Origin: Candidatus Multivoradales bacterium
GTDB lineage: Bacteria > Acidobacteriota > Thermoanaerobaculia > Multivoradales > Multivoraceae
NCBI GenBank assembly: GCA_965223325.1
Contig: CBDCWI010000002.1
Location: forward strand, 4,320,001-4,384,000
DNA: 64,000 nt
Direction: 5' to 3'
Shown: piece after piece, positions 33,504-50,845 of the stretch
How the letters are laid out: the number at the start of each line of letters is the position of its first letter
How positions within the stretch are numbered: the stretch's first letter is position 1
Made by a program: the position numbers and the translations under genes
The notes under the pieces: generated by a model
Database searches by the model: none
What the model saw: only the letters and a program-made list of their open reading frames with translations
Told to the model about the DNA's origin: nothing

Positions 33504-33598
33504 GAGTTCTCCTCCGGAGCAATGGATGGCTCCGTGGTCGATGGGCCGCGGCAGCGGCCTCCCTCGACACGATGAATCAATGGGACGTCGACCCATTG

Positions 33599-33739
33599 TA
33601 CGACCCATCCGCCCTGTGGCTAGCCCGGTGTTGAGTTCCATCGTGGTCAGGAATCCGCGGCGCGCGCCAAGCGAGCGAAGGTCGACGCCATTTCGTCAAC
33701 GCGACGTGGTTGGCAAGGGGCCGCGCTGCGGGACGCTTG
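33599..33739 (+). repeat. Diverged member of the 284-bp repeat family (5' exon of intron copy 1; continues about 35650-35686)
   Basis: Same ordered motifs as the array unit: TAyGACC...GTCA, GAATCCG..GGCGCGCGCCmAGCGA, CCGCGCTnCGGnnCGCTTG|CGCCG, GGrGyCGTGGTAACG. Confidence 0.55.
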
Positions 33740-35649
33740 GATACGCCGGGATAAACCGGCATGGAGAAAGGAATGAGAGAGTCCCACCCTCGAAGGGGTA
33801 GCGACCCAGAGGGTCCCCGAGTCATGCGCCGGCTCCCGCGAGGGTGCGGTGAAGCGTTGACAGGGGCACACACAGGCCGGGTATTGAGCCGCGAAATAAG
33901 AATTTGGGAGTGCCGACGCTGTCAAGCGAAGCGGAAGGCGAGACTCCGTAGCGCGCTATCGCGAGCTCTGCGGCGACTCCCCGCGGTCGTAGACCCTGTG
34001 CATGTGTGGAATCTCCATGCGCGAGAACCGGGAGATCCGCGATCTGGCCAGTTGGGTATCTGGTCCGCATCGGGAAGGCTAGAGGCCGTAAGCCGATGAC
34101 GCACGGATGGCGGAAGTCAGACAGGCCCGTAGTACCTGCGAAGTCGTCGAACAACGGTGGGAGACCAGCGGCGGAGGCGGTGGAGGGAAGGGGCCTGGCC
34201 AAGGGGAACACGGGCAAGCAAAACGCACCCCGGACACAGAGCCGGATGGAGAGTGCGAGCAATGCGCTGGGCCGTGTACGAGAAGCCGCCCGCAGGGGCA
34301 AGGAAGTGAAGTTCACAGCGCTTCTTCACCACATCACGGTCGAGCGACTCCGGAGCGCATTTGACGTGTTGCACCGAGACGCAGCGGCAGGAGTGGACGG
34401 AGTGTCATGGAGCGAGTACGCAGAATCTTTGCTGAGCAATCTCGAGGACCTGCACTCTCGTGTCCACCGTGGGAGCTACCGGGCGAGTGCGACTCGTCGC
34501 GTCTACATCGAGAAATCGGATGGGCGGTTCCGACCGCTTGGCATCGCCACGTTGGAGGACAAGATCCTTCAGCGCGCCGTCGTCTCGGTGTTGGATGCGA
34601 TCTACGAGGAAGACTTTCTCGGGTACTCATACGGATTCAGGCGAGGCCGCAGCCAGCACGATGCTTTGGATGCGCTATTCGTTGGAATCACAAAGCGGAA
34701 GGTGAACTGGGTGCTCGACGCAGACATTCGTGGGTTCTTCGATGCCCTGGACCACGAGTGGCTGGTGAAGTTTCTCGAGCACCGTATCGGAGACCGTAGG
34801 ATCCTTCGCCTCATCCAGAAATGGCTGAGGTCCGGAGTGATGGAAGACGGTAAGTGGCACGCGAGCACGCGGGGGACTCCTCAGGGGGCGACGATTTCGC
34901 CTCTCCTCGGGAACGTGTACCTGCACTACGTGCTCGATCTCTGGGTCCAGCAGTGGAGGAAACGCAACGCGCTTGGGGACATGATCTTCGTGCGCTACGC
35001 GGATGACTTCATCGTTGGATTTGAGAGGCAGGAGGAGGCAGAACGATTCCTCGAGGAACTGAACCTGCGACTCCGTGACTTCTCGTTGGAGATCCAACCC
35101 GAGAAGACGCGCCTGCTGGAGTTTGGCCGCTTTGCGGCCTACAACCGACGCGCGCGAGGTCTCGGGCGGCCGGAGACCTTCGAGTTTCTAGGCTTTACGC
35201 ACTGCTGTGCGCAGTCTAGTCGAGGGAGGTTCTTGCTGAAGCGCATCACGAGCCGCCACCGAATCCGCAGGACACTGAAGGCTGTCGGTACGGCCCTTCT
35301 GGGACACCGACACTCGCCGCTACCAGAGCAAGGTCTCTGGCTGGGATCCGTGGTGCGAGGCTTCAATGCCTACTACGGCGTACCCGGCAACTCAGCGGCG
35401 TTGAACGCCTTTCGACAGGAGGTCATTCGGCACTGGATGCGCGCTCTGCGCCGACGCAGTGACAAAGACCGCACGTCCTGGAAACGGATGTGGGCCCTGG
35501 TGGCCCACTACCTACCCAAAGCCCGAGTCCAACATCCCTGGCCTGATGAGCGACTTGTCGTCAATACCTGAGGCAGGAGCCCAGTGCATTAGCAGTGCAC
35601 GCTGGGATCTGTGCGGGGGGCGCCGGGCAACCGGCGCTCCTACCGCGAT
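33740..35649 (+). mobile_element. Group II intron, copy 1 (IIB-like, resembles bacterial class E; 1,910 nt)
   Basis: RT ORF. Domain V GAGCCCAGTGCATTAGCAGTGCACGCTGGGATC (AGC triad); domain VI hairpin with A at -8; ends AT. EBS1 CAAGCG (33923-33928) is complementary to exon CGCTTG (33734-33739). Class assignment is from memory of family features. Confidence 0.95.
34096..35571 (+). CDS. ltrA: Group II intron reverse transcriptase/maturase (no HNH endonuclease domain)
   Basis: AAGVDG, RPLGI..EDKI.Q, SYGFR.GRS.HDA, DADIRGFFD, GTPQG, RYADD, TFEFLGF; ends HPWPDERL. Confidence 0.97.
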   Translation: MTHGWRKSDRPVVPAKSSNNGGRPAAEAVEGRGLAKGNTGKQNAPRTQSRMESASNALGRVREAARRGKEVKFTALLHHITVERLRSAFDVLHRDAAAGVDGVSWSEYAESLLSNLEDLHSRVHRGSYRASATRRVYIEKSDGRFRPLGIATLEDKILQRAVVSVLDAIYEEDFLGYSYGFRRGRSQHDALDALFVGITKRKVNWVLDADIRGFFDALDHEWLVKFLEHRIGDRRILRLIQKWLRSGVMEDGKWHASTRGTPQGATISPLLGNVYLHYVLDLWVQQWRKRNALGDMIFVRYADDFIVGFERQEEAERFLEELNLRLRDFSLEIQPEKTRLLEFGRFAAYNRRARGLGRPETFEFLGFTHCCAQSSRGRFLLKRITSRHRIRRTLKAVGTALLGHRHSPLPEQGLWLGSVVRGFNAYYGVPGNSAALNAFRQEVIRHWMRALRRRSDKDRTSWKRMWALVAHYLPKARVQHPWPDERLVVNT

Positions 35650-35777
35650 CGCCGCAAGAGTGATGAGTAGCGGAGCCGTGGTAACGCCTTTTCGAGGTCG
35701 AAGAAGCGGCAACTCCGGGCCGTCAACGAGTCACCGAAGAGGCCCTTCTGGCAGAGGCCGCAAAACCACGGCCCCCG

Positions 35778-36566
35778 CTACAAGAAGCCGAAGATCGCGA
35801 CGAAGTGGATCGCTGCGCCGACGAGGCCGAAGACGTGCCAGACCGTGTGGCCGTAGGGCAGGTTGTGCCATAGATAGAAGGCTCCGCCAAGGGTGTAGGC
35901 CAGGCCGCCGGCGAGGAACAGGGTCCAGGCCATTGGGGGCAGGGCAGCGGTAGCAGTGGGATACACCAGAAAGATGCTCCAACCCAGAGCGGCGTACGAA
36001 CCAACACACCAGCGCCGGTGCCAGACGCTGCTGCAGTGGTGTTTCCGGGTCACCAGCTTGAGGACGATCCCGGTGGCGGCGGCACTCCACACGGCACCCA
36101 ACAGGGGGACACCCACCGAGTGGTCGAGCCCGAGCAGGCAGAAGGGGGTGTAGGTACCGGCGATGAAGAGGTAGATCGCACAGTGATCGACGACCTGAAA
36201 AAGGGCACGGCGGGCCGGCTGAAGCTCGGCATGAAAGAGGGTCGAGGCAAGAAAGAGAAGAACCAGTGTGGCGCAATACAAAGCGCTGGCCGCAAAGGGA
36301 AGCAGAGACGTTTCGTAGGCGAGCCGAGTGAGCACCAGGCCCGAGGCGCCAGCGGCGGCGACCAGCCCGGCGGCATGGGTGACGATCTCAGCGAGGTCCT
36401 CGGTCGGTCGCCGGCGCGGGCGTGCGCTGGCCTTCTTCTTGGGGGCCTCCACCCTGATGGTTCGAGCGTCGACGGCGAGGCCTGTCTCGCTGGCCCGCCG
36501 GACTCTCTGACCGCCGAGCGTGGTGCGTGCGGGGATTGGTAGCAGGGTAACTTCGGTGGTGGACAT
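35778..36566 (-). CDS. Hemolysin III / PAQR family membrane protein
   Basis: STLFH, DHCAIYLFIAGTYTPF, GGLAYTLG, HTVWHVF. Confidence 0.93.
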   Translation of the reverse strand: MSTTEVTLLPIPARTTLGGQRVRRASETGLAVDARTIRVEAPKKKASARPRRRPTEDLAEIVTHAAGLVAAAGASGLVLTRLAYETSLLPFAASALYCATLVLLFLASTLFHAELQPARRALFQVVDHCAIYLFIAGTYTPFCLLGLDHSVGVPLLGAVWSAAATGIVLKLVTRKHHCSSVWHRRWCVGSYAALGWSIFLVYPTATAALPPMAWTLFLAGGLAYTLGGAFYLWHNLPYGHTVWHVFGLVGAAIHFVAIFGFL

Positions 36567-36634
36567 GGCTTATTGCAGGAGGAGACCGTCGAGATGGAGA
36601 GGTGGTTCAGGGCCAGGGCTGTGGACTGCCTCGC

Positions 36635-36862
36635 TCAGGCGACGTGGTGGCGGCGGAATTCGAGGTGCGACGAGGCTTCTGCGTACGTCGTCGAGGTCGC
36701 CGCTGCGCTCTTGGCCTGGCGCCGGGTCGAGAACTGGTCGAGTTCGACCGCCAGCAGAGAGAGGTCGTCGTCACTGAGTTGGTCGTCGAGCGCCGTCCAG
36801 CTCCAATCGTTTCGGTGAAGGAGGTCGTCTAGCCGGTCTGCGATGGCGGTGGTCGGTTTCAT
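36635..36862 (-). CDS. Small hypothetical protein
   Basis: 75-aa ORF with GGAG RBS upstream; no motif. Confidence 0.45.
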   Translation of the reverse strand: MKPTTAIADRLDDLLHRNDWSWTALDDQLSDDDLSLLAVELDQFSTRRQAKSAAATSTTYAEASSHLEFRRHHVA

Positions 36863-37068
36863 GATCGGTGGTCTCCGGTTGCTGCTCGATGGCTTCTGCC
36901 GCTGCTTCTTCGCTCAGGCCTCTGGTACTGCAGTGCGCGTGCCAGGGCTCGTTTCAGGGCGGTCGCCACCAGGAACAACCCAGTAAATACCCTCAGAGGG
37001 CTGTTTCAACGCGGCGCGTGGCATTCGCGGTGGTGACTTCGGTGGCAGCCAAGTGGGCACAAGTGGAA

Positions 37069-37095
37069 CTCTGGCTCCATTGGCTGGAGCCAGAG
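37069..37095. terminator. Perfect 11-bp hairpin, possible terminator
   Basis: CTCTGGCTCCA-ttggc-TGGAGCCAGAG about 30 nt downstream of the 37125..37694 gene. Confidence 0.5.
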
Positions 37096-37124
37096 CTCTC
37101 CTCCGTGACGTCGAGTGAAGGCTG

Positions 37125-37694
37125 CTAAGCGTTCTTCCGGTTGTTCCACCAGTTGAGGGCGCCGCGCGCCAGGGTTGCCCAGATACCGTTGCGCTGTTCC
37201 TGGACTTCACCGCCGCGCGACTCGCGGTAGCGGTCGATACCCCAGTCGACGACTCGGGTGAACCAGTTCTTCTTCTTGGTCGTACCGTCGGCTCCCGCCT
37301 CGGGCGCCAGCCCGCTGCGGTAACGGCGATAGCGGCTGACACCCCAGTCGGCGAGTTTGGCGAACCATCCACCCTTGGTGGCCGAGGTGGGTTCGCCCGT
37401 GCGGTAGGTCTTGAAGCGATCTACACCCCAGTCGACCAGGTTCTGCCACCAACGGTCCGGCTTGCCCTGGGAGCGCCGGTCTTCGCTGCGCTGCCACCAA
37501 TCGCCGAGCAAGCGGGTGAGCCAACCACCTTGCTGCTTGGGGCTTGCCTGCTGGGGCGCGGCTTGACTGTTGTAGGTGCGGGGGGTTTCGTTGCCATCGA
37601 CGGGGGCGCTTTGCGGGCGGGCCACCTGAACGTCGGCGGAGTACGTGCTCGCCACCTGGCGTGCGGTTGCGTTCTGAATTCCAGCTAGAGACAT
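37125..37694 (-). CDS. Orphan protein with Trp-rich amphipathic repeats
   Basis: RBS AAGGAGG before ATG 37694; repeats WWQNLVDWGVDRF, WFAKLADWGVSRY, WFTRVVDWGIDRY. Confidence 0.8.
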   Translation of the reverse strand: MSLAGIQNATARQVASTYSADVQVARPQSAPVDGNETPRTYNSQAAPQQASPKQQGGWLTRLLGDWWQRSEDRRSQGKPDRWWQNLVDWGVDRFKTYRTGEPTSATKGGWFAKLADWGVSRYRRYRSGLAPEAGADGTTKKKNWFTRVVDWGIDRYRESRGGEVQEQRNGIWATLARGALNWWNNRKNA

Positions 37695-37894
37695 CGGACA
37701 GGCCCTCCTTTTGAGGTCTTGATTCGTGTTCTGGGCCTCGGCCACCGGCGGTGGTCGCGGGTTCAGAGGGCTCTTCCGGAAGGCGCCGGCTTTGTTACCG
37801 GTCGGACCGGTCGAAACAGGGGTGTAACGAATCTGGCTCAGGTCGGAAGGGAAAGAGAGACGACAGATCGAACCCCTTTCACTGGAGTTTTCCC

Positions 37895-40321
37895 ATGACC
37901 GTTGCCTACAACCCCGTTCCTGGTGCCTCGCCGCCTTCGAACTACAAAGCGCCCTCACCGGGCGCCACACCACAACCCGCCAAAGCCCCCGGCGACAGCT
38001 ATGTCGGGGGCCCCGCCGGAGGGACGAGTGGTCACAGCCCGGGCCGACTGCACAAGATCAAGCGCTATCTCGAGCGCCTGTCCGCACAGGACCTCGAGCG
38101 TCTGGCGGCGAAGCAGTTCGCTCCCATCCAGGAACTCACCATCGGGCTGTCGGCTGCCGACCAGGCAACCGTACAGAACATGCTCGTTCAGAAGCTCGAG
38201 GCGGCCGGAGTTGCACTGCCAGGGGCCGGTGGTCCTGGCGGTGCGGAGGCGGATCAGGAGATCGCGCCCGGTGTGACGCTTGGCGAAATCGCTCCGCAGA
38301 CCGCCTGGGATGCCGTTCAGATTCGCCTGCCAAAAAGCCAGGACGAGATCAAAGCGATTCTGCGAGAGAACTGGGACCAGCGAGCAGAGACCGAAGGCGA
38401 CCAGATCCTGCCGGGTAAGCCGCCGGGTCAAGCCGTTATCGACTGGCACGAAGGCTCGGTCAACCACCTGATCAACTTCGGCATGGACGTTGGTGCGCTG
38501 CCGCACGAGATCAAACACGACGCCGCGGTCACCGCACGCAATCTCCTGGGCTACGCCCCAGGTGAGACGCCTGGCGGCGGGCCCAGGCCGCTCGCCGAAG
38601 AGGCCGTCTTCGGCGCCGTCTTGATGCGCATTCCCGAGGAGCGCGTCAACCCATACCAGCTCAAGTCGGCGCTCAAGTTCGTTGCCAAGGCCAAAGACGG
38701 CGCCGAACAGGCGCGCCGCCTGACCCAGACCATCGAGGGAATGCAGGTGCTCGACAAGGCCGGCTCGCCGCCGGTCACCGACACGATGCTCGAGCAGTGG
38801 CTGTACCAGAAGCACGACGTGCCGTTCGTGGCGATGCGCATGAGCCCGCAGGAGCTGCGCGAGAAGCACGACGAGATTGCCTTTATCCAGTCGGCGCCCG
38901 GGCACCACGAGGTCGGGCTGTCCAAGCACCGCACCTTCAAGATCGATAACGACGAACAGGGCAACACGACCCACGTCGAGGTCCACAAGAAGAGCGGCTG
39001 GTCGCGCTTCAAGGAGAAGTCGATCAAGTGGGCCGGCATTGCGTTCACCATCATGAGCTTCATTCCGCCGGTTGCCTGGATCGGCATGATCGGCAACGCC
39101 GCCATTTCGCTCTACCAGGGCTACAAGAACAAGGACTGGGTGGGTGGCATCGTTGGTGCCGCGGCGTCTTTCGCTGGTGCCGGTGCCGCCGGAGTGGCGG
39201 GCGCCGCGACCAAGGCTGCCCAGACCATGGCGACGGTTGGCAAGTACGCCGCCGTGGCTGGCGGCTTGATGGACGCCTATGCGGCCAAGAAGCGCGGCGA
39301 CTCGGCGGGTTTCTGGGGTGGCGTGGCTGGCTCAGTAGCGACCGCCTTCGGTGGCAAGCTCAACCGCGTCGGCGAGAAGGCGACCACGATGAGCCAGAAG
39401 ATCGGCGACTGGGCGGCGCGCGCTGCTGCTGCGGCCGACGGCTACAAGGCGGCCAAGAACGGTGACTACCTGGGCGCGGCAAGCGTTGGCTTGCGGATCG
39501 CCGCGTCGCTCGACGCTACTGGTGAGAAGGTCGATGCCAAGCTCCTGAAGACCGCCGATGGGTTCGACAGGTACCTCAACCCGGCTCTTGCGGCGGCTCG
39601 CAACGAGGACTACTTCGGAGCGGCATCCGGGATCGCCGGCTTCTTGAGTTCCTATGGTGGCAAGAACCAGAAGGCGTGGGAGAACACCGCCATCGCCCTT
39701 CAGGCCCTGGGCTATTCAAAGGAGGCGATCGAACACAAGCAGTGGGGTGCTGCTGCTGCCGGCATCGCCGGGGCTGCCGCGCGCTGGCGCGAGACCTACG
39801 AGAACCGGCGTGATGCCAAAGCCGGCGAGACCGGCGTATCGACCCCCGATGCCGCTGACACCGATTCCGAAACCCGAAAGAAGATGGAGGTCTCGGACCT
39901 GCTCGACCACCTCTCGAAGGGCCTCAACTACCTCGACAGCGGCTACCAGCTACTCAAGGAGCATCGCTACAAGGAAGGTGCAGCAAGCCTGCGTGGTGCC
40001 TCGGCCGACTATCTCGCGGGCAACAGCATCGGCCGCAGCGTCGAGCGCCAGGCCCAGATCGTCGACCAGATCGTCTCGGTGGCCGAACGCCTCGAGGCCG
40101 GTGACTATGAGCGTGGCGGCGTTGAGCTCAACTACCTGGCGACGATGCTCACCGGTGCCGGTCTCGACGACCTCAAGGCCGAGCTCGAAGGCGCGGCACG
40201 TTACTTCGTCGAAGTCGGTCGCGCGGGTCAGGAGCCCTCGGCCGAGGCCGAACAGCGTTTGAGCATGGCCCTCGAGGCGATGTTCAAGGCGTGGGCTCCC
40301 GAGGTGCAGCAGGCAGCCTGA
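37895..40321 (+). CDS. Large orphan protein with hydrophobic/glycine-zipper region (effector/pore-former-like)
   Basis: RBS GGAG, ATG 37895; Pro/Ser-rich N-terminus, no Sec signal, central hydrophobic hairpin, repeated D(Y/W).G(A/G)...G units. Confidence 0.8.
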   Translation: MTVAYNPVPGASPPSNYKAPSPGATPQPAKAPGDSYVGGPAGGTSGHSPGRLHKIKRYLERLSAQDLERLAAKQFAPIQELTIGLSAADQATVQNMLVQKLEAAGVALPGAGGPGGAEADQEIAPGVTLGEIAPQTAWDAVQIRLPKSQDEIKAILRENWDQRAETEGDQILPGKPPGQAVIDWHEGSVNHLINFGMDVGALPHEIKHDAAVTARNLLGYAPGETPGGGPRPLAEEAVFGAVLMRIPEERVNPYQLKSALKFVAKAKDGAEQARRLTQTIEGMQVLDKAGSPPVTDTMLEQWLYQKHDVPFVAMRMSPQELREKHDEIAFIQSAPGHHEVGLSKHRTFKIDNDEQGNTTHVEVHKKSGWSRFKEKSIKWAGIAFTIMSFIPPVAWIGMIGNAAISLYQGYKNKDWVGGIVGAAASFAGAGAAGVAGAATKAAQTMATVGKYAAVAGGLMDAYAAKKRGDSAGFWGGVAGSVATAFGGKLNRVGEKATTMSQKIGDWAARAAAAADGYKAAKNGDYLGAASVGLRIAASLDATGEKVDAKLLKTADGFDRYLNPALAAARNEDYFGAASGIAGFLSSYGGKNQKAWENTAIALQALGYSKEAIEHKQWGAAAAGIAGAAARWRETYENRRDAKAGETGVSTPDAADTDSETRKKMEVSDLLDHLSKGLNYLDSGYQLLKEHRYKEGAASLRGASADYLAGNSIGRSVERQAQIVDQIVSVAERLEAGDYERGGVELNYLATMLTGAGLDDLKAELEGAARYFVEVGRAGQEPSAEAEQRLSMALEAMFKAWAPEVQQAA

Positions 40322-40349
40322 GTCGAACCGCGGAGCGAGAACTCCTGGT

Positions 40350-41465
40350 TCAAGGCGCCAGTTGACGCGTCGCCGCCGCGCGGCGGCGCGCGGCCAGGGT
40401 CGACGCAGGCTCGATAGCCAGGGCACGGTCGGCGGCCGCGAGCGCCTTCTCCGGCTCGCCCAGGGCGAGAAGAATGGAGGAGTAGGTGCAGTGCAGGCGG
40501 GCATCGCCTGCCTTGGCGCGCAGGGCCGACTCGAGGACGGCAAGTGCTTCCCGGGGCCGGTCGAGCTCGCGCAGCGCGATGGCCATGGTGTTCTGTGCTC
40601 CGACGCTCAGCCTGCCGCCGTCACTGGTGCTCGAGCGGATTGCGAACAGAGCCTGCTCAGGGCGCCTTTTTCGCAAATGGTGGGCGGCTGCGATTTCCCA
40701 GGCGTTCGCGAGCAGCGCATTCTCGCGTGTCGTTGGGGCGATCGACTCCGCATAGCGATCGTTGTAGAACTGGATGTAGTGCGCCAGAGGTTTCCATTGA
40801 GACGAGGAAGCGCCGGCTTCGAAGACCCACGGCTTGCGGTTTCGATCGTAGACCAGAAGGGCCAGGTGGTCCGAAGTGCTGAGCGCCCCGAGCTGTCGGG
40901 AGAGACCGAGCCGAGGCCTGAGCCGATCGACCCGATCGAGGATCGCATCCAGGAGGACCACTCCGCTGTCGCAGTCGACCCAGAATGCTTCGCCGTGATG
41001 CGGCGCGCCGGGGTGCAGGCGTTGTTGGTCGAACCGCAGCGACAGAAGCGTGTTGTCGCCACCCTCGCGTTGCCACTGCACGCCGGCTAGTTGAAGGAGC
41101 TCGGCGGCCCGTTCGACGAGGGCGTCGGTCTTGCGGATCTGATCCGCTTCCCGTACCAGTCGGGCCGCCGTTTGATCGCGCAGGCGAAGCACTCGCCGTG
41201 CTCCGCGGGCGGCGCGCTCCTTGGTGGTGTTCGAATCGTAGGCAACCGTTTCCCGGTCGATCAGGAGCCGGGCCTCGAGACGTTTGCCATGTCGCGCCAG
41301 CTTGGCTGCGCGCTCGGCGAGCGCACCCTCTTCAAAGGCAGCTGAGCCCGCGACTGCTCGCGCCTCGGATGCCAAGAGAGCAGCGGCGGCCAGGACCGAG
41401 GCCAGCAGGGTGGAGCGCGCACTCCATCCCGAAGAGCAAACCGTTCGTACCTGCTTGGGGACCAT
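40350..41465 (-). CDS. Exported transglutaminase-like (Cys/His) domain + TPR protein
   Basis: Signal-like N-terminus, DCDS...DHLALLV...FEA motif, C-terminal TPRs. Start uncertain. Confidence 0.6.
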   Translation of the reverse strand: MVPKQVRTVCSSGWSARSTLLASVLAAAALLASEARAVAGSAAFEEGALAERAAKLARHGKRLEARLLIDRETVAYDSNTTKERAARGARRVLRLRDQTAARLVREADQIRKTDALVERAAELLQLAGVQWQREGGDNTLLSLRFDQQRLHPGAPHHGEAFWVDCDSGVVLLDAILDRVDRLRPRLGLSRQLGALSTSDHLALLVYDRNRKPWVFEAGASSSQWKPLAHYIQFYNDRYAESIAPTTRENALLANAWEIAAAHHLRKRRPEQALFAIRSSTSDGGRLSVGAQNTMAIALRELDRPREALAVLESALRAKAGDARLHCTYSSILLALGEPEKALAAADRALAIEPASTLAARRRAAATRQLAP

Positions 41466-41537
41466 TGATCCCCAAAATAGCACCGACTACGACTCGTCCC
41501 TCGCGATTCGTCCCAAGGCAGAGTTGGCGAGGTTGCT

Positions 41538-44501
41538 CTAGTGCCGCTCGAGCAACAGGTTGGTCACCCGTCCTGCATCCAAACGAAGTCTGCCGGGCAA
41601 AGCCTCTCCGCCTGGATTGCGCAGGGCGAGGAAACCATCAGTCCAAAGCGGCCCCTCTTCGTCATCGGCAGACGACCATCGCAGCTTCGTCTCGAGCCCC
41701 GGCGGCACCGAGATCGCCAACAGACCGTTCTCGAACGAGATCTCTTAGGTTACGTCGAGCTCCGCGCTGTACCAGCGGCCGACGTAGGGCCGCGCGTCAG
41801 CGGCAGCGGCTGGTGGCGGGATCTCGGTGCTGTCTTGCCCGATCGAGAGCAGTTCCGGTTCGCGAGCGGTCTGCGCCTTCTCGGGTTCCATCCTCGCCCC
41901 GAGCAAGACCTCCGCGGTCCGTTGGGCAAGGCGTGTGGACCAAGCGTCAGCACGGTTGCACAGTACGACGGTGGCGAGGTTCTCGCTCGGCCAGGTGGTC
42001 ATATTCGCGCGGTAGCCGACGAAGGCGCCGCCGTGCCCGAGCGTCTCCAGCCCTCGATGTTCGCCGTACGTGATGCCGAAGGCGTAGGGGTGGAGTTCCG
42101 GTTCTCCGTTGTCGCTTCCTTTCGAGTCGCCTCCGCGCAGCGGCTGGCGCGTTCGGATGAGATCGTGGAAAGGAGCGCCGAGCACCCGCGGCTCGAGCAG
42201 CTCCCGGGCCCACCGCGACATGTCCTCGACGTTCGAGAAGACGCCGCCGTCCCCGACCATGTCGAGGGTCGTCATCGACTGCCGCCAGTGCTGGCCTGGA
42301 CTCTCGGCGTAGCCGTTGGCCCGATGGGCGACGACGTGCGCGTGGTCGTCGTGAAAATGGGTGTCGGACATGCCGAGAGGTTCGAAGATCAGCTCGTCGG
42401 CAACTGCGCGAAGCGACCGGCCGGTGACCCGTTGGACGATCTGCGACATCAGGAAGTAGCCGCTGTTGCTATAGAGAAACTCGGCACCGGGCTCGAAGTT
42501 CAGCTCTTGTTGGCGCTCAATCATCGCCGAAGCTTCAGCGTCGGTGTAGAAGTCATCGCCTCGCTTGCCGGCCAGGAACATGAGCGTCAGGTAGTCCCGA
42601 ACGCCGCTTGTATGGTGGATGAGTTGGCGCGTGGTGACTTCGTTTCCCCATTCGGGAAGGTTTGCCAGGTAGCTCTTGATCGGCACATCGATATCGAGAG
42701 CGCCGCGCAGGTGAAGAAGCGCAACGGTGGCGGCAGTGAACTGCTTCGAGACCGAGCCGATACGAAAAACCGTCTTTGAGTCGATCGCGGTTCGGGCTTC
42801 GAGGTTGGCCATACCGTAGCCACGCGAGAACTCGAGCCGCCCGTCTCTCACGACGCCGAGAGCGCAACCCGGTGCGTGGGTTCCTCCCATTCCGTGGTCA
42901 GAGAAGACATCGTCAAGGGCGGTGATCACCTGCGGGTCATGCGGGTCCCTTACGCCGGCTCGACGAAGGGCACGCCCGGGTCGTTCGCCGGTCGCGCGGC
43001 CGCGATCCCAGACCGTCCGCCCGTTGACCCACACTCGCACGATGCCCAGGGAGGTCTTGGAGGGTTCCTCGAAGGTTGCCCGGTCGCGGACCGTCTCGGC
43101 GTCGAAGAGCACCAGGTCGGCTGGTCCTCCGACCCGGATGACACCGCGCAGCAACTGACCATCTTTGCCGGTCAGGCCGACGTTCCTGGCGGCCAACGCC
43201 GAAGTCTTGTGGCTCGCCTCGGCCAGGGTCACTGCCCCCGCCTCGCGCACGATCATGGCGAAGAAGCGCGGGAAAGACCCCGCGCCCCGCGGGTGGCGAT
43301 CGGCGAGGGCACCGTCGCTCGAGACGTTGGTGTACTTCCAGGTGTAGAGCTCTTCGATGTCTTGTTGTGACATCGAACGCGCGATGATCGACTCGCCAGA
43401 GGCACCGGTCTTCTGCCGCCATTCTGCGGCTTCGGCGAGCAGGTCGAGATAGAGGTCGACCGGGTCGACCTTGCGTGCACGGGCGATCTCGTCGAGGGTG
43501 CGACCGACGAGCTCAGGCTGGGGGGCCCAGCGCGACAGACGAAAGCCATCTGGCGGCGCGAGCTCGCGGAGGGCGAAGGCGGCCGTCTCCCGGTTGTCGA
43601 AGTCACGCTCGGGGAAGAGCACCGTCATCGTCGACTGCCACGCGTCGTAGGGGTAGACGTCTGCCGAGACTTCGATCCCCTCGTCACGCGCTGCCTGCAG
43701 GCGAGCGATCACCTCGTTGGCACGCCCGTGCAGGCTCTTCATGGCGAGTTTGAGGTGCGACGCCTGGACTGGGATCTCGGCCCGCCGTCCAATCTCGATC
43801 AGCTCGTCGAGGGCCTCCAGCACTTGGCGGTCTTCAGAGCGCATGTGTGAGACGTAGCGCCCGTCATGGCGTGCAACGGCCTTGGCCAACGCGACCACCT
43901 CGTCGGTCGTGGAGTAGATCCCCGGGTCGTACTCGAGCCCGCTCGACAGGCCGAGGGCGCCGTCGCGCATCGCTTGTTCGACAAGTCCGACCATGCGTTC
44001 GACCTCGTCTTCGGTGGCGGCGCGCTCGAAGTCGTCGCGCATGACGGCGGCCCGAATCGTTCCGTGGCCTACGAACGTAGCCACGTTGACTGCCGCGGGC
44101 TGCCTATCGAGGCCGCGCAGGAAGCGGCCGACTGGAAGCGATGAACCACCGTCCTGGCCAACGACGATGGTCGTGATGCCCTGACTGATCGCTGCTTCGG
44201 CGAGCGGCTCGTCGAAAAGGCCGATGTCGTGGTGGCTGTGAGTATCGACGAAGCCCGGCATCAGAACCAGGCCCGCGGCCTCGATGACGCGGTCGGTGCT
44301 CTGCGTCATCGCTTCGGCCTCGCGGCCCAGCGCGGCCACCGCATCGCCTTCGATGCGGACCGTCAGAACGCGACCATCGGCACCACTGCCGTCGAAGACG
44401 GTGGCACCTTGGATCACGGTTGCCGGGCGGCTCTGTGCGGCGACCGCCGCAGTAGTCAGAAGAAGCGCGCCGAGCGCACCGAGGGCGCTGCTAGGACGCA
44501 C
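41538..44501 (-). pseudogene. D-aminoacylase-like amidohydrolase fused to beta-lactamase-like serine hydrolase, with in-frame TAA at 41745-41747
   Basis: PGFVDTHSH, HMRSE, HPRGAG; SVSK, YSN, HGG. The frame continues 68 codons past the TAA to TAG at 41538. The truncated product may still be active. Confidence 0.75.
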
Positions 44502-46137
44502 CGCGACGGACGGCGAAGGCGCGGTCGATGGCGTTCATGTGCTCGATGCGCAGGTTGCTGCCAGCCTGGATGGTTTCACCGAGCTCCATGTAGGCCTCAC
44601 TCTCGGGTGTGAAGGCCGGCCACTCCGGGAAACCATCGCCGTTCGGGTTGCCCGTCCTGGCGAAGCGCACCCAGAGATCGGCGATGGTCTCGGAGAACTC
44701 CTCGTCGGCCTCGGTCGGTTCGGCGCCGAAGAGCGTCAGGTCGCCAAAGACATAGCCGAGCTCGCCAGCATGAAAGGCGCCGAGGTCGGTGTCACCCGGG
44801 ACCGGCGGGCTCCAGGTGAAGTAGTACAAGTAGGCCGGGCTGCTGGCATTTGCCATGCCGCGTGCCCAGGCGCGCTGCGGATAGGCGAACAGTACGTCAC
44901 TGAAGAGATCGATCCAGGCGCGGCGCGCCTCATCGTCGCCCACCGGGTAGAGCACCTTCGCCTCGTCTCCGAGTTCAGGAAGGGTCATTGCCAGGTAGCG
45001 CTCGAAGCCGACGTTGCCGGCGCCGAGAGCGGTGGCGAGGTAAGGCAACAGGGTCGACCCCTCATCGGCGTTGGAGCCGGTCATGACTGGAACGTCACTC
45101 TGGTCTCCGGCGGCGAAGATCTCGGCGACTTCCCTGGGGATCGCATGGCCGTCGACGATGGCCAGTCCTTCGTAGGCGGCGAACGGCTGAAACGCCTCGA
45201 GCACCCTGGCGGGATCCTGGGCGCGCAGCGCGGCGAGCGATGCCTCCGCTTCACCATCGTCGGCGGCTGGCAGGAGCGCCTTTGTAAACTCCTCGCCTCG
45301 CGCCTCGGCCGAGGGAGTCCAGCTGGTTGCCTCGGTACGGTGAACCATGGGTTGGAACGAGCCACCGCTTTGTCCGATGGCGCGATGGAACATCCCCTTG
45401 GCAAGCGGCGAGGCCTGCACCAGCGAAACGCTGAGTGCACCAGCAGACTCTCCGAAGATGGTGATGTTGTCCGGGTCTCCGCCGAAGGCCGAAATGTTGT
45501 TGCGCGTCCACTCGAGTGCCTTGATCTGGTCGAGAATGCCCTGGTTGCCGGAGGTGCCGTGCGGGCTTTCGGCCGACAGTTCGGGGTGCGCCAGGAAGCC
45601 GAAGGCACCGAGGCGGTAGTTGATCGTCACCAGCACGACGCCCTTCTTGGTGAGCAGGTCGCCTCGATAGTCGCCGCCGCTACCCGCCGTCAGACCGCCG
45701 CCGTGAATCCAGAACATCACCGGCAGGCGGTCGTCTTGCGAGGTGGCGCGCGACCAGACGTTGAGCGTCAAGCAGTCTTCTGAGACCGCGCTGTACGACT
45801 GGTTGTAGAAGCCGCCGTCAGGGCCCGCCAGCTGCTGACACGCAGCGCCGACCTCGGTGGCACTGCGCGTACCCTCCCAGGCGACGACTGGTTGCGGTTC
45901 GCGCCAGCGGAGCGCGCCGACCGGGGGGGCTGCATAGGGAATACCGAACCAGACGGGTGTTCCGTCGGCACTCGTCGTACCAACGATGGCGCCGCCGGTT
46001 ACCGCGATTTCAGCAGTGATACCAGTCGCCGTCTGGTCAGCACCGGTCTCGTTCATGTCGCAAGCCGCGAGGGTAGAGATCAAGAGCAGAAGCAAAGTGG
46101 GAAGAGCAACGTTCCTGAAAAGGGTGAACAACGCCAT
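44491..46137 (-). CDS. Type B carboxylesterase lipoprotein
   Basis: Lipobox LAAC, GIPYAAPPVG.LRW, SEDCLTLNVW, HGGG, FGESAG, FHAGEL. Confidence 0.95.
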   Translation of the reverse strand: MALFTLFRNVALPTLLLLLISTLAACDMNETGADQTATGITAEIAVTGGAIVGTTSADGTPVWFGIPYAAPPVGALRWREPQPVVAWEGTRSATEVGAACQQLAGPDGGFYNQSYSAVSEDCLTLNVWSRATSQDDRLPVMFWIHGGGLTAGSGGDYRGDLLTKKGVVLVTINYRLGAFGFLAHPELSAESPHGTSGNQGILDQIKALEWTRNNISAFGGDPDNITIFGESAGALSVSLVQASPLAKGMFHRAIGQSGGSFQPMVHRTEATSWTPSAEARGEEFTKALLPAADDGEAEASLAALRAQDPARVLEAFQPFAAYEGLAIVDGHAIPREVAEIFAAGDQSDVPVMTGSNADEGSTLLPYLATALGAGNVGFERYLAMTLPELGDEAKVLYPVGDDEARRAWIDLFSDVLFAYPQRAWARGMANASSPAYLYYFTWSPPVPGDTDLGAFHAGELGYVFGDLTLFGAEPTEADEEFSETIADLWVRFARTGNPNGDGFPEWPAFTPESEAYMELGETIQAGSNLRIEHMNAIDRAFAVRRGAS

Positions 46138-46315
46138 GGGTTGGCCTCCTTGGCACCGCTGGGCGATCGCCTCAGGACCAGAGAGCGCAAAGACTCACGG
46201 TCCGCCGCAGCGGCTCAGGTTGTTTCAAAAAGGGGGGGACGGGCGGAATCTTATCGGAGGTCCCGCCGGGCCCCAGCCGCAACTCTTGAGGTTCAAGGCC
46301 CGTAGAAGGTCTTCA

Positions 46316-46984
46316 ATGCGAGGAATCGAGCAGATCCCATGGTGCTACGACACTTTGATGGGAATCTCCGAGCGCACCGGTCTCGGACGTTGGCGCCGCT
46401 GGCTCACCTCCGGCAGCCAGGGACAAGTCCTCGAAGTCGGCAGCGGCACCGGCCGCAACCTGCCGCTCTACCCCGGCGACGCCAAAGTCATCGGCCTCGA
46501 GCCCGCCTTCGCATCACTCCTCGCAGCCCGCAAGAAGTCCCCCGATACCCGCCTCGTCCTCGGCAGCGCCGAAGACCTGCCCTTCAGACCGAACAGCTTC
46601 GACACCGTCGTCTCCGGCCTGGTCTTCTGCAGCGTCCCCGACCCCATGCGCGGCCTCTCCGAAGTCGCCCGAGTCCTCCGCCCAAGCGGCACCCTGCGCA
46701 TGTTGGAGCACGTCCGCGCCAAGAGCCACTGGGGAGGAAGATTCCAGGACCTCATTCTGCCCCCCTGGAAATTCGTCACCGGCGGCTGTCACCTCAACCG
46801 TGACACCGAAGCCAACGTAAGAAACGCCGGCTTCCAGATCCAGCCCGACCGGAAAGAAGACGGCTCCCTACGCTGCTTCAGCGCAGTTCCGCCGCGCGAG
46901 GTGAGTCGCGATCGAGTCCAAGCCGAGGGCCGTATGACCCCGTTGACGCCGCCTCGGGGCAACGGCCTGCAGCTCGGGTTGTAG
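46316..46984 (+). CDS. Class I SAM-dependent methyltransferase (METTL7-like); last ~20 aa read from repeat unit 1
   Basis: VLEVGSGTG, FDTVV..LVFCSVPDP, RVLRPSG..LEHV, GGCHLNRDT; TAG lies inside the repeat. Confidence 0.92.
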   Translation: MRGIEQIPWCYDTLMGISERTGLGRWRRWLTSGSQGQVLEVGSGTGRNLPLYPGDAKVIGLEPAFASLLAARKKSPDTRLVLGSAEDLPFRPNSFDTVVSGLVFCSVPDPMRGLSEVARVLRPSGTLRMLEHVRAKSHWGGRFQDLILPPWKFVTGGCHLNRDTEANVRNAGFQIQPDRKEDGSLRCFSAVPPREVSRDRVQAEGRMTPLTPPRGNGLQLGL

Positions 46985-47652
46985 CCGTAGAATCCGAGTA
47001 GGCGCGCGCCCAGCGACTCGCAGTCGTTCGCCGCGTGTACAGGGCGGCCTCCCGGCGCCGTCGGCCCGCGCTTCGGACCGCTTGCGCCGTCCCCCTTGAG
47101 GGGGTACCAGGGGGTGAGGTGACATTGATTGGGGTCGTGGTAACGACGGATCGCGCTCGCGAGATCGCCTCTCTCTACCAACAGCCTCACCCAAGCCGAG
47201 CGCGATACGAGGGCCGTATGACCCCGTTGACGCCGCCTCGGGGCAACGGCCTGCAGCTCGGGTTGTAGCCGTAGAATCCGAGTAGGCGCGCGCCCAGCGA
47301 CTCGCAGTCGTTCGCCGCGTGTACAGGGCGGCCTCCCGGCGCCGTCGGCCCGCGCTTCGGACCGCTTGCGCCGTCCCCCTTGAGGGGGTACCAGGGGGTG
47401 AGGTGACATTGATTGGGGTCGTGGTAACGACGGATCGCGCTCGCGAGATCGCCTCTCTCTACCAACAGCCTCACCCAAGCCGAGCGCGATACGAGGGCCG
47501 TATGACCACGTTGACGTCGCGTTTCGGGAACTGTGAACCCATCAAGTCATAGCCGTAGAATCCGAGTAGGCGCGCGCCCAGCGACTCGCAGTCGTTCGCC
47601 GCGTGTACAGGGCGGCCTCCCGGCGCCGTCGGCCCGCGCTTCGGACCGCTTG

Positions 47653-49562
47653 GATACGCCGGGATAAACCGGCATGGAGAAAGGAATGAGAGAGTCCCAC
47701 CCTCGAAGGGGTAGCGACCCAGAGGGTCCCCGAGTCATGCGCCGGCTCCCGCGAGGGTGCGGTGAAGCGTTGACAGGGGCACACACAGGCCGGGTATTGA
47801 GCCGCGAAATAAGAATTTGGGAGTGCCGACGCTGTCAAGCGAAGCGGAAGGCGAGACTCCGTAGCGCGCTATCGCGAGCTCTGCGGCGACTCCCCGCGGT
47901 CGTAGACCCTGTGCATGTGTGGAATCTCCATGCGCGAGAACCGGGAGATCCGCGATCTGGCCAGTTGGGTATCTGGTCCGCATCGGGAAGGCTAGAGGCC
48001 GTAAGCCGATGACGCACGGATGGCGGAAGTCAGACAGGCCCGTAGTACCTGCGAAGTCGTCGAACAACGGTGGGAGACCAGCGGCGGAGGCGGTGGAGGG
48101 AAGGGGCCTGGCCAAGGGGAACACGGGCAAGCAAAACGCACCCCGGACACAGAGCCGGATGGAGAGTGCGAGCAATGCGCTGGGCCGTGTACGAGAAGCC
48201 GCCCGCAGGGGCAAGGAAGTGAAGTTCACAGCGCTTCTTCACCACATCACGGTCGAGCGACTCCGGAGCGCATTTGACGTGTTGCACCGAGACGCAGCGG
48301 CAGGAGTGGACGGAGTGTCATGGAGCGAGTACGCAGAATCTTTGCTGAGCAATCTCGAGGACCTGCACTCTCGTGTCCACCGTGGGAGCTACCGGGCGAG
48401 TGCGACTCGTCGCGTCTACATCGAGAAATCGGATGGGCGGTTCCGACCGCTTGGCATCGCCACGTTGGAGGACAAGATCCTTCAGCGCGCCGTCGTCTCG
48501 GTGTTGGATGCGATCTACGAGGAAGACTTTCTCGGGTACTCATACGGATTCAGGCGAGGCCGCAGCCAGCACGATGCTTTGGATGCGCTATTCGTTGGAA
48601 TCACAAAGCGGAAGGTGAACTGGGTGCTCGACGCAGACATTCGTGGGTTCTTCGATGCCCTGGACCACGAGTGGCTGGTGAAGTTTCTCGAGCACCGTAT
48701 CGGAGACCGTAGGATCCTTCGCCTCATCCAGAAATGGCTGAGGTCCGGAGTGATGGAAGACGGTAAGTGGCACGCGAGCACGCGGGGGACTCCTCAGGGG
48801 GCGACGATTTCGCCTCTCCTCGGGAACGTGTACCTGCACTACGTGCTCGATCTCTGGGTCCAGCAGTGGAGGAAACGCAACGCGCTTGGGGACATGATCT
48901 TCGTGCGCTACGCGGATGACTTCATCGTTGGATTTGAGAGGCAGGAGGAGGCAGAACGATTCCTCGAGGAACTGAACCTGCGACTCCGTGACTTCTCGTT
49001 GGAGATCCAACCCGAGAAGACGCGCCTGCTGGAGTTTGGCCGCTTTGCGGCCTACAACCGACGCGCGCGAGGTCTCGGGCGGCCGGAGACCTTCGAGTTT
49101 CTAGGCTTTACGCACTGCTGTGCGCAGTCTAGTCGAGGGAGGTTCTTGCTGAAGCGCATCACGAGCCGCCACCGAATCCGCAGGACACTGAAGGCTGTCG
49201 GTACGGCCCTTCTGGGACACCGACACTCGCCGCTACCAGAGCAAGGTCTCTGGCTGGGATCCGTGGTGCGAGGCTTCAATGCCTACTACGGCGTACCCGG
49301 CAACTCAGCGGCGTTGAACGCCTTTCGACAGGAGGTCATTCGGCACTGGATGCGCGCTCTGCGCCGACGCAGTGACAAAGACCGCACGTCCTGGAAACGG
49401 ATGTGGGCCCTGGTGGCCCACTACCTACCCAAAGCCCGAGTCCAACATCCCTGGCCTGATGAGCGACTTGTCGTCAATACCTGAGGCAGGAGCCCAGTGC
49501 ATTAGCAGTGCACGCTGGGATCTGTGCGGGGGGCGCCGGGCAACCGGCGCTCCTACCGCGAT
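47653..49562 (+). mobile_element. Group II intron, copy 2 (apparently identical to copy 1, offset 13,913 nt)
   Basis: All internal ORF translations match copy 1. Boundaries are fixed by comparison with intact repeat units (GACCGCTTG|CGCCGTCCCC). Confidence 0.96.
48009..49484 (+). CDS. ltrA: Group II intron reverse transcriptase/maturase
   Basis: Protein identical to 34096..35571; RYADD. Confidence 0.97.
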   Translation: MTHGWRKSDRPVVPAKSSNNGGRPAAEAVEGRGLAKGNTGKQNAPRTQSRMESASNALGRVREAARRGKEVKFTALLHHITVERLRSAFDVLHRDAAAGVDGVSWSEYAESLLSNLEDLHSRVHRGSYRASATRRVYIEKSDGRFRPLGIATLEDKILQRAVVSVLDAIYEEDFLGYSYGFRRGRSQHDALDALFVGITKRKVNWVLDADIRGFFDALDHEWLVKFLEHRIGDRRILRLIQKWLRSGVMEDGKWHASTRGTPQGATISPLLGNVYLHYVLDLWVQQWRKRNALGDMIFVRYADDFIVGFERQEEAERFLEELNLRLRDFSLEIQPEKTRLLEFGRFAAYNRRARGLGRPETFEFLGFTHCCAQSSRGRFLLKRITSRHRIRRTLKAVGTALLGHRHSPLPEQGLWLGSVVRGFNAYYGVPGNSAALNAFRQEVIRHWMRALRRRSDKDRTSWKRMWALVAHYLPKARVQHPWPDERLVVNT

Positions 49563-49801
49563 CGCCGTCCCCCTTGAGGGGGTACCAGGGGGTGAGGTGA
49601 CATTGATTGGGGTCGTGGTAACGACGGATCGCGCTCGCGAGATCGCCTCTCTCTACCAACAGCCTCACCTTGAGGGGGTACCAGGGGGTGAGGTGACATT
49701 GATTGGGGTCGTGGTAACGACGGATCGCGCTCGCGAGATCGCCTCTCTCTACCAACAGAGGGCCGAGTAGGCGCGCGCCCAGCGTATGACCACGACCCCA
49801 A

Positions 49802-50845
49802 TCAATACCTGAAAGGCCAAAGCCGAAAATAATCCTTCACATTCCGCCACAACTTCGCCAACCCCTCCGGCTCTAGAATCAAGAACAACACAATCACCAA
49901 CCCAAAGACTCCCTGCTGTACGAACGGCAACTTCGCAGCGAGAAGTGGCGCCGTGTCTTGCATCGCCCGGCCCATGGTCGAAATGAACGCCGGCAGAAGC
50001 ACAATCAGAGTGGCCCCGAAGAAGCTGCCGTTGATCGTGCCGAGGCCGCCGATGATGATCATCGCCAGGTAGAGAATGCTGGTCTCGATCGTGAACCGCT
50101 CCCAGGTGACGATCGTTCGGTAGTGCGCCAACATCGCACCCGCCAGCCCGACGACGAAACTCGAGGTCGCGAAGGCCAGGAGCTTGTAACCAAAGACGTT
50201 GACGCCGATGGCAGAGGCCGCGATGTCTTGATCGCGAATCGCAACGAACGCCCGGCCGACGCGCGACCGGAAGAGATTGGCAGTGGCCAAGGCGACCAGG
50301 CAAGCGACACCGACCGCGATCCAATAGAACTCGAAGTCACCGTTCACCCGCATGCCGGCCAGTTCTGGTGCCGGCACGACCAGCGCTTCGGTGCCGCCGG
50401 TAAGCGCTGTCCAGTGGGTGATCACCCACTCGACGATCTGTTGAGCGGCCAGGGTTGCGATGGCCAGGTAGAGGCCCTTCAGGCGCAGGCTCGGCAGGCC
50501 GAAGAAGAGCCCTATGAGAGCAGTCAGGAGGGCCGCTGCCGGAATGCTGAGGAAGAAGGGCCAGTCGAAGCGGGCGGTGAGGATTCCAGAACTGTAGGCA
50601 CCGATGGCGAGAAAGGCACCCTGCCCGAGGCTGATCTGACCGGTATAGCCAACCAGGATGTTGAGGCCCAGCGCACCGATGGTCGCTAGAGCGATCTGGT
50701 TGGCGAGGGTGAGCCAGTAGTTGCTGGCGACGAACGGAAAGGCAACCAGAAACACTCCGAACAGGGCCAGGCGCACCTTCTCGAGCGGCAAGCGGCGCAG
50801 CGACATGTCGCGGCGATAGGTTTCGAAGAACGTTCCAGATTGCAT
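49802..50845 (-). CDS. LIV-type ABC transporter permease (LivM-like)
   Basis: GLNILVGYTGQISLGQ, LRLKGLYLAIATLA, GRAFVAIRD, IIGGLG. Confidence 0.95.
   Translation of the reverse strand: MQSGTFFETYRRDMSLRRLPLEKVRLALFGVFLVAFPFVASNYWLTLANQIALATIGALGLNILVGYTGQISLGQGAFLAIGAYSSGILTARFDWPFFLSIPAAALLTALIGLFFGLPSLRLKGLYLAIATLAAQQIVEWVITHWTALTGGTEALVVPAPELAGMRVNGDFEFYWIAVGVACLVALATANLFRSRVGRAFVAIRDQDIAASAIGVNVFGYKLLAFATSSFVVGLAGAMLAHYRTIVTWERFTIETSILYLAMIIIGGLGTINGSFFGATLIVLLPAFISTMGRAMQDTAPLLAAKLPFVQQGVFGLVIVLFLILEPEGLAKLWRNVKDYFRLWPFRY

Follow-up and report, generated by a model that had tools for sequence, protein, structure and literature searches.

Why should two genes that face opposite ways across a tandem repeat array share one DNA polarity in the endings of their codons? 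The question is raised by a locus of Candidatus Multivoradales bacterium (Acidobacteriota), in a 64,000-nucleotide window (the whole stretch analysed, C2:4320001-4384000; positions given without a contig are those of the window) of a 6.69-Mb genome with 64% G+C and two contigs, C1 and C2. To the left of the array lies a + strand methyltransferase gene whose codons end mostly in C, and to its right a - strand branched-chain amino-acid permease gene of the LivM type whose final codons end mostly in G or T. A sequence-only reading had explained both flanks as one halo of strand-specific mutation, left by repeated exposure of the minus strand as single-stranded DNA (ssDNA) around the repeat. This interpretation is partly supported when every copy of the repeat is considered: a strand-specific gradient tied to the repeat exists, on one side of the arrays only, and the permease tail is a separate anomaly of this locus.

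A one-sided wobble gradient beside the repeat arrays

A profile made from the flanks of the group II intron that interrupts the array detected 188 units of the repeat family at 61 loci in this genome, mostly as arrays of 2-7 tandem units with periods of 190-310 nt. At 47 loci a gene ends directly at the array, its 3' end lying mostly 55-85 nt away from where the profile match stops. This gene is termed the anchor (here the permease), and the array begins at its stop codon itself and extends downstream; the gene beyond the other end of the array is termed distal (here the methyltransferase). Arrays were oriented by the intron-sense strand, and the keto skew, (G+T)-(A+C), was measured at wobble positions in our own open reading frame (ORF) and codon-model gene calls, which are not curated annotation and to which the methyltransferase, missed by the gene caller, was added by hand.

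With the present locus left out, distal genes running toward the array had wobble keto skews of -0.352, -0.243, -0.177, -0.171 and -0.104 at 0-50, 50-100, 100-200, 200-300 and 300-500 codons from the gene 3' end (n = 25, 25, 20, 16 and 5), whereas 1365 convergent control genes from the same calls were flat across these bins (-0.091, -0.106, -0.093, -0.079 and -0.083; Mann-Whitney U test, MWU, p = 4e-10, 5e-4 and 5e-3 for the first three). The gradient decays over ~300 codons, roughly 0.3-1 kb, and is found within genes, the near-minus-far contrast being -0.157 for distal genes and -0.013 for controls (p = 0.002). Skew in the final 50 codons was negative in all 24 distal genes, present locus included. 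The shift is present on both replication strands (-0.325 vs -0.159 and -0.270 vs -0.022, distal vs control), and neither the number of units nor the presence of an intron is relevant to it (-0.224, n = 5, against -0.248, n = 20). The arrays and spacers themselves have the same sign (-0.108 and -0.144).

At four-fold degenerate sites, C and A are raised and G and T lowered in distal genes (C.549, G.237, A.129, T.085) relative to controls (C.460, G.320, A.092, T.128), giving C/(C+T) of.847 vs.769 and A/(A+G) of.364 vs.265. The direction is the one expected of C->T and A->G on the complementary strand, which bears out the proposed deamination signature as far as direction goes; selection fits it too. 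It had also been argued that the polarity belongs to the DNA and not to the coding strand. In 23 genes that turn their 5' end toward the distal end of an array, the skews (+0.038, +0.057 and -0.033, against -0.030, -0.062 and -0.075 in controls) indeed have the same DNA polarity, in a weaker form (p = 0.10, 0.006 and 0.25).

The anchor side is flat. In the final 50 codons of 48 other anchor genes the mean was -0.10 (sd 0.20), with the present locus highest at +0.64, and the tail shift of the other anchors follows the genome distribution (MWU p = 0.68). Among 35 arrays with coding sequence on both sides, the present locus alone has both flanks below -0.2. The skew test around all copies that the sequence-only reading had proposed thus returned an oriented gradient on the distal side, and a halo on both sides turned out to be no general property of the family.

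The methyltransferase and its homologues

The codon endings counted in the sequence-only reading for an 80-codon stretch of the methyltransferase were exact (Table 1), and none of these codons is GCG, GTG, TCG or ACG, which across the genome account for 34% of the codons used for Ala, 33% for Val, 55% for TCN-Ser and 28% for Thr. Before the array, third-position base fractions of the gene are 0.63 for C (C3), 0.17 for G (G3), 0.15 for A (A3) and 0.05 for T (T3), and its (C3-G3)/(C3+G3) of 0.575 exceeds that of all 2151 genes of the same replication orientation (maximum 0.47). An 80-codon window with at least 62 C-ending codons occurs in 6 of 4146 called genes. In 240-nt windows, GC skew was -0.305 at 46441-46680 and -0.27 at 49741-49980 in the permease; genome-wide, 343 of 111,496 such windows (0.31%) reach -0.285 or lower and 802 (0.72%) reach -0.25 or lower. 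As very many windows were scanned at the first stage, finding two outliers together has to be discounted heavily for the look-elsewhere effect.

At four-fold sites of its last 100 codons the methyltransferase (C.574, G.222, A.130, T.074) agrees with the family mean, and at 100-200 codons from its end it is the strongest case of all (-0.72; minimum among the others -0.36). Seven homologues from genomes without the repeat range from -0.20 to +0.33 and are ordinary, on which ground a codon pattern inherited with the gene was rejected. Another distal gene (gene 1) has skews of -0.60, -0.36, -0.24 and +0.04 with distance, against -0.28 to +0.08 in the final 50 codons of 10 homologues. Across gene 1, a further distal gene (gene 2) and the methyltransferase, none of 21 homologues in genomes without the repeat reaches the values of this genome, and one comes partway. 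In these homologues of distal genes the pattern is weaker or missing; an orthologue of the permease from a genome where the repeat was not found, described below, shares its flip.

Translational selection does not account for the methyltransferase, as the ribosomal-protein cluster and EF-Tu have C3 of.37-.50, A3 of.02-.12 and T3 of.11-.22. A pairing or common sequence between the methyltransferase and the permease tail was likewise rejected, local alignments scoring below shuffles. Ribosomal and other classic highly expressed genes are not those of highest C3 skew in the genome (e.g., C2:1721568-1722782 and C2:1190669-1191550); several of the top ones encode secreted proteins, and the top 40 all lie on the C-rich replication strand. 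The methyltransferase ORF has lost the stop codon it had of its own, and its final 20 codons lie in the first repeat unit (46924-46984); its homologues terminate near residue 193-202.

Table 1 Features of the locus, by position in the window
Feature	Position	Strand	Evidence or remark
Second ATPase of the split operon	31468-32262	-	
Binding protein of the split operon	32283-33503	-	
16.3-kb segment parting the permease from the rest of its operon	33506-49801	.	
Second identical intron copy, in another array of the same family	33740-35653	+	
HlyIII gene, anchor of that second array	35778-36566	-	
Carboxylesterase	44491-46137	-	
Class I SAM-dependent methyltransferase, distal gene of the array	46316-46984	+	Pfam Methyltransf_11, E = 3.2e-20
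Peak of C-ending codons, 80-codon stretch	46442-46681	+	62 C, 9 G, 8 A, 1 T; 240-nt GC skew -0.305
Tandem array, period 284 nt, 2.6 units	46924-47652	.	TRF 95% matches; nhmmer family profile E = 5e-29
Group II intron within a repeat unit, antisense to the permease	47653-~49562	+	RF02005 at 47691-47909, 180.6 bits; insertion point set by intact units
Intron reverse transcriptase (RT) ORF	47919-49484	+	RVT_1, E = 9.2e-39
96-nt sub-repeat, 1.9 copies; unit part with one hairpin arm	49572-49758	.	TRF 100% matches
Stop-codon hairpin	49700-49804	-	Arm 49789-49804 (permease stop 49802-49804) pairs with arm 49700-49715
LivM-type branched-chain amino-acid ABC permease, anchor gene of the array	49802-50845	-	BPD_transp_2, E = 2e-43; orthologues 65-82% identical
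Recoded final 58 permease codons; amino acids kept, sense-strand C lost	49805-49978	-	

A stop-codon hairpin at the array start and a homing intron

At the 47 loci the start of the array consists, in order, of the stop codon, eight variable nucleotides (N8), CGTGGTT, ~90 nt of G/T-rich sequence, GTTACCACG, the complement of the eight (N8') and the complement of the stop codon, followed by the intron target. The stop codon of the anchor thereby lies inside a 16-bp stem. In a 21-locus alignment, 94.9% of cells of this stem were paired, compared with 74.6% in shuffles and 35-47% in slid controls; 12 of the 16 pairs had changed on both sides, and 0 of 500 shuffles reached that pairing. Arm sequence varies among loci yet remains complementary (e.g., 49700-49804 and 35604-35790). 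By our own tally, anchors stop at TAG at 38 of 47 loci, compared with 1540 of 4147 genes (37%) genome-wide. The repeat family was not found by BLAST in 25 relatives, which included members of the same genus, and keyword searches found no published description of it or of repeat-anchored wobble gradients.

The third unit of the 284-nt array is interrupted by the intron, which begins at GATACG, 38 nt ahead of the Rfam match, and is present in 14 near-identical copies (at least 99.9% identity) in the genome. Thirteen of these occupy the same site, target GGACCGCTTG^CGCC, in a hairpin-bearing repeat and antisense to the anchor gene. Judged by its ribozyme domains, RT, copies and target, it is a mobile group II intron that homes into the repeat units, even though Rfam (E <= 0.1) matched only the D1-D4 part and detected no domains V and VI, and the ORF matched RVT_1 alone, with no maturase or endonuclease Pfam match at E <= 0.001. 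Sequencing runs from other studies hold mainly the intron and a few identical 151-nt pieces; contigs of four runs have no variant letters over the flanks and are uninformative on expression or mutation.

Group IIC introns home to stem-loops, such as terminators and integron attC sites, and lie antisense to the neighbouring gene. The present intron resembles them in being compact (~1.9 kb with the RT ORF), in its hairpin-repeat target and in its antisense orientation to the anchor; unlike in the integron case, the target is not attC by its consensus, and involvement of an integron is improbable. attC sites carry the boxes RYYYAAC...GTTRRRY directly after a cassette ORF. The repeat shares the position right after an ORF, but its conserved boxes are CGTGGTT...GTTACCACG, and the dispersal of its 61 loci over both contigs argues against a single integron platform. 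The intron in the groEL stop codon described in PMC12584367 is different from the present element.

A recoded permease tail at a break in the operon

Of the final 39 permease codons, 33 end in G or T (23 G and 10 T, with 3 A and 3 C), as the sequence-only reading had stated, and the fading it described is also correct, usage being ordinary again within ~230 nt. Moving away from the stop codon, C/G/(A+T) endings run 1/9/8 in the first 18 codons and 4/18/8, 11/13/6 and 18/10/2 in successive blocks of 30. With C3 = 0.10 the tail is the lowest of 4021 gene tails, tied with one other. Compared with the consensus of 12 ordinary orthologues on the sense strand, 37 C were lost in 174 nt (C>T 18, C>G 16, C>A 3) and 4 gained; nearly all changes are silent, and the conserved C-terminus is still encoded.

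The same flip was found in one of 58 further parsed orthologues, in genome G012 (record QQVD01000023), where it is abrupt, at about codon -45, and coincides with a synteny break. The two recoded tails are 81% identical, compared with 74% upstream. An exact 29-mer of the tail occurs in G012 alone among species representatives, and a metagenome scan for recoded tails with a 27-mer pattern yielded one G012-like contig only. At 121-550 of this contig, a 430-nt livH-livM spacer contains short REP-like palindromes (GTCAT...GGGAATCC type), and an 11-bp inverted repeat brackets ~230 nt from the livM stop codon.

Both genomes have lost the co-directional binding-protein gene behind livM, and a convergent gene faces the permease instead. 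At 67 of 80 orthologous loci a second-ATPase match lies ~1.2-1.7 kb downstream of livM; here the homologues of the binding protein and second ATPase map to C2:4351471-4353416, the binding-protein gene being 16.3 kb from the permease. The intervening segment encodes HlyIII, a TPR protein, an amidohydrolase/beta-lactamase-fold fusion, the carboxylesterase and the methyltransferase, and two identical, co-oriented intron copies near its ends suggest recombination between intron or array copies.

Several origins of the tail were tried and rejected. Prophages and islands can replace the 3' end of the gene into which they integrate, as in icd with e14 or phage 21, and the tail is similar in that the last 45-58 codons of a conserved gene, next to inserted DNA, carry many silent differences from a sharp point onward. 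Unlike in that case, however, Pfam searches detected no integrase in the flanks of either genome, tblastn and local alignment recovered no displaced 3' end, and the changes are directional (C loss) rather than random. A diversity-generating retroelement (DGR) was dismissed since the tail has no second copy in the genome and the RT belongs to the group II intron. Consensus scans found no promoter or intrinsic terminator in the last 58 codons, nor in the G012-like contig; one terminator-like match lies just upstream of the tail (50005-50019). Overall, we take the tail for an anomaly apart, specific to this locus and arisen at the break in the operon; it has the same DNA polarity as the distal gradient and lies on the wrong side for the exposure model developed below. 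Recoding under selection and recombination at the operon break are the candidates for it.

A second C-depleted tail belongs to an acyl-CoA-synthetase-like gene (C2:3583257-3585125), with 5 C, 23 G and 9 T as third letters of its final 40 codons; in full-length orthologues, same genus included, C numbers 14-23 and T 0-5. The encoded protein extends ~10 residues beyond these orthologues at its C-terminus, which adjoins lower-GC DNA. Two other top flips largely reflect amino-acid content, one being a lysine-rich tail and the other differing mildly from its orthologues.

Proposed exposure of the anchor-sense strand and its alternatives

The observed gradient consists of an anchor-sense strand that is enriched in G+T at silent sites of distal genes, on one side and with decay. 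A strand-specific mutational cause for it is plausible, and our best explanation overall, put forward tentatively, is that this strand has been exposed or damaged downstream of the arrays and has lost C and A, the permease tail being a separate matter. Untranslated transcription would read through from the anchor gene across the G/U-rich, C-poor array; the array RNA, if Rho-resistant, would form R-loops and leave the non-template strand single-stranded; the anchor-sense strand would be preferentially exposed or damaged downstream of the arrays; and C->T and A->G losses would accumulate over evolutionary time, with purifying selection preserving the amino acids. RNA that is rich in G and U and poor in C is a poor Rho substrate and prone to R-loops. 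Among routes of exposure, read-through with R-loops is favoured because the zone starts behind a stop codon, because the anchor-sense array RNA is G/U-rich and C-poor, and because the effect ignores replication direction; the composition of the array would fit such a zone. That each array is a heritable, strand-specific mutation zone which rewrites silent sites within ~1 kb downstream, via R-loops or other exposure, is possible but doubtful.

A long-term strand deamination pattern may be read from the co-oriented distal genes (p = 4e-10) and, with the same sign and weakly, from opposite-oriented ones; it is one-sided, and selection is possible too. A single burst of ssDNA hypermutation (kataegis-like) is excluded, because the strand-coordinated changes at all codon positions that it would leave are not seen: positions 1 and 2 are unaffected in the methyltransferase and the other distal genes.

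Several observations weigh against exposure of the anchor-sense strand. The model leaves the permease tail unexplained, and the flip recurs in G012, where the repeat was not found by BLAST. Opposite-orientation genes are significantly shifted in only one of three bins, and the methyltransferase peaks 100-200 codons from the array and not beside it. At codon positions 1 and 2, no difference separates distal genes from controls (p = 0.11-0.45); with silent positions alone shifted, selection on RNA composition fits as well as mutation. One gene 2 homologue from a genome without the repeat has -0.40 in its final 50 codons. The methyltransferase and three tested distal genes have no close orthologues in the family, which means that foreign ancestry could contribute. 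Finally, all statistics come from one genome and home-made gene calls.

Selection on RNA composition is the first alternative to strand exposure, and we consider it unlikely. Here the 3' part of the distal mRNA and the intron-sense array would be kept C-rich and G-poor as a Rho loading zone, which is equivalent to a read-through RNA of the anchor maintained rich in G/U and poor in C. Recoding of the permease tail would have made the convergent transcripts that enter it rich in C (36% C, 14% G), so that they are terminated. Such selection would explain why wobble positions alone change and would suit the exchange of a co-directional for a convergent downstream gene in both genomes with recoded tails, and a consensus scan of the sequence between the convergent genes, at this locus and in the G012-like contig, detected no intrinsic terminator. 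Extreme flips (d < -0.4) were also commoner in convergent pairs with gaps of 50-400 nt (11 of 331 vs 10 of 911; Fisher p = 0.012). However, a convergent arrangement is not a sufficient cause of tail flips, as 1344 convergent and 2481 tandem genes do not differ in mean and the orthologues of another flipped gene are convergent yet unflipped. The gradient, moreover, extends 200-300 codons deep into the translated part of genes, where ribosomes should shield a Rho loading site, and the shift of A over T is unnecessary for Rho binding. Opposite-orientation genes share the DNA polarity, so that their mRNA becomes G/T-richer, not C-richer.

Mosaic ancestry, in which the arrays mark junctions of foreign or accessory DNA that brought along the odd wobble of the distal genes and permease tail, appears quite unlikely. 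The genomes of its own family that were searched contain no methyltransferase homologue above 40% identity (33% within its genus; other families of its order have one at 60%), and homologues of distal genes 1-3 occur in 10 of 30 (37-52% identity), 4 of 30 (35-50%) and 0 of 30 family genomes. The insertion of the 16.3-kb segment between livM and the binding-protein gene, the abrupt C3-to-G3 switch of G012 at its synteny break and the greater identity of the two recoded tails than of their upstream parts also point this way. Conversely, the other genes of the segment are ordinary (C3.41-.52), the gradient is seen inside single genes and is directed at the array, and its sign is the same in every distal gene. 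Neither an integrase nor a displaced tail copy accompanies the permease, and a potential donor with a G3-rich tail was found in none of the 58 parsed orthologues except G012, to which, with its metagenome relative, the tail k-mers are confined.

The sequence-only reading had suggested, as one example, a trans-acting HUH/RAYT-type nuclease, which would nick the repeat and, through strand-displacement synthesis, repeatedly expose the distal anchor-sense strand. This predicts the one-sided, orientation-tied exposure observed, the hairpin of the units has a foot that is conserved (stop codon, N8, CGTGGT), and the genome has 28 matches to PF01797 (Y1_Tnp), 25 of them above the cut-off. The proposal is nevertheless improbable, as the Y1 genes form groups of identical score like multi-copy insertion sequence (IS) elements and, by our own coordinate comparison, one of the 28 adjoins an array and none is flanked by arrays on both sides, as RAYT genes are by REPs; the permease side would also be left unexplained. 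REPs are short (~20-40 nt) imperfect palindromes with a conserved 5' head and many extragenic copies. The present repeats are like REP/BIME systems in being palindromic, in having a conserved foot, which begins with TAG at 38 of 47 loci, and in lying just after gene 3' ends in a genome with HUH genes. They are unlike them in their tandem units of 190-310 nt, in a covarying 16-bp stem around a ~95-nt loop with arms that differ among loci and in their absence, by BLAST, from the 25 relatives. Many of the Y1 matches (e.g., C2:4455510-4486968 and C1:2126128-2143849) are open frames of 320-350 aa clustered near contig ends.

An artefact or chance, with the gradient produced by gene calls or by degenerate repeat read as ORF ends and the flanks as unrelated outliers, is very improbable: the calls are home-made and one gene was added by hand, the methyltransferase ends in repeat sequence, and the enrichment of extreme wobble regions near arrays is modest (14 of ~278 genome-wide within 1 kb of an array, 7.6 expected by area), but the controls come from the same calls, the bins from 50 to 200 codons are still shifted, distal genes resemble ordinary coding sequence at positions 1 and 2, and protein homologues exist for gene 1, gene 2 and the methyltransferase.

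Significance of a repeat-oriented gradient

The gradient resembles the strand asymmetry left by replication and transcription in shifting bases in the same direction on one strand, most strongly at silent sites. It is unlike it in being local (0.3-1 kb) and set by the orientation of a repeat rather than by replication or the gene's own transcription, and it is larger (wobble keto skew of -0.35 vs a replication effect of ~0.14). Zones of GC skew and R-loops are known at eukaryotic promoters, terminators and immunoglobulin switch regions. Like these, the arrays precede a zone with a G-rich strand, putatively the non-template one, downstream of a defined point, for which a link between untranslated RNA, R-loops and deamination is proposed; unlike them, they belong to a bacterium, place the zone behind a stop-codon hairpin array and imply no deaminase.

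The repeat family merits description in its own right, with a stop codon held in a covarying stem, a preference for TAG and a homing site for a group II intron. Local differences in mutation rate or spectrum in bacteria are usually ascribed to replication direction or to a gene's own expression, whereas here the orientation of a neighbouring repeat sets the pattern. If strand exposure is the true cause, a family of bacterial repeats would be leaving a directional gradient of mutation in the genes beside it. Mobile or repeated elements could then steer how adjacent genes evolve with no need to insert into them, and the arrays would make read-through, Rho evasion and R-loops open to study in a natural setting, an uncultured lineage of Acidobacteriota. 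If the cause is selective, terminator function would reach hundreds of codons into coding sequence.

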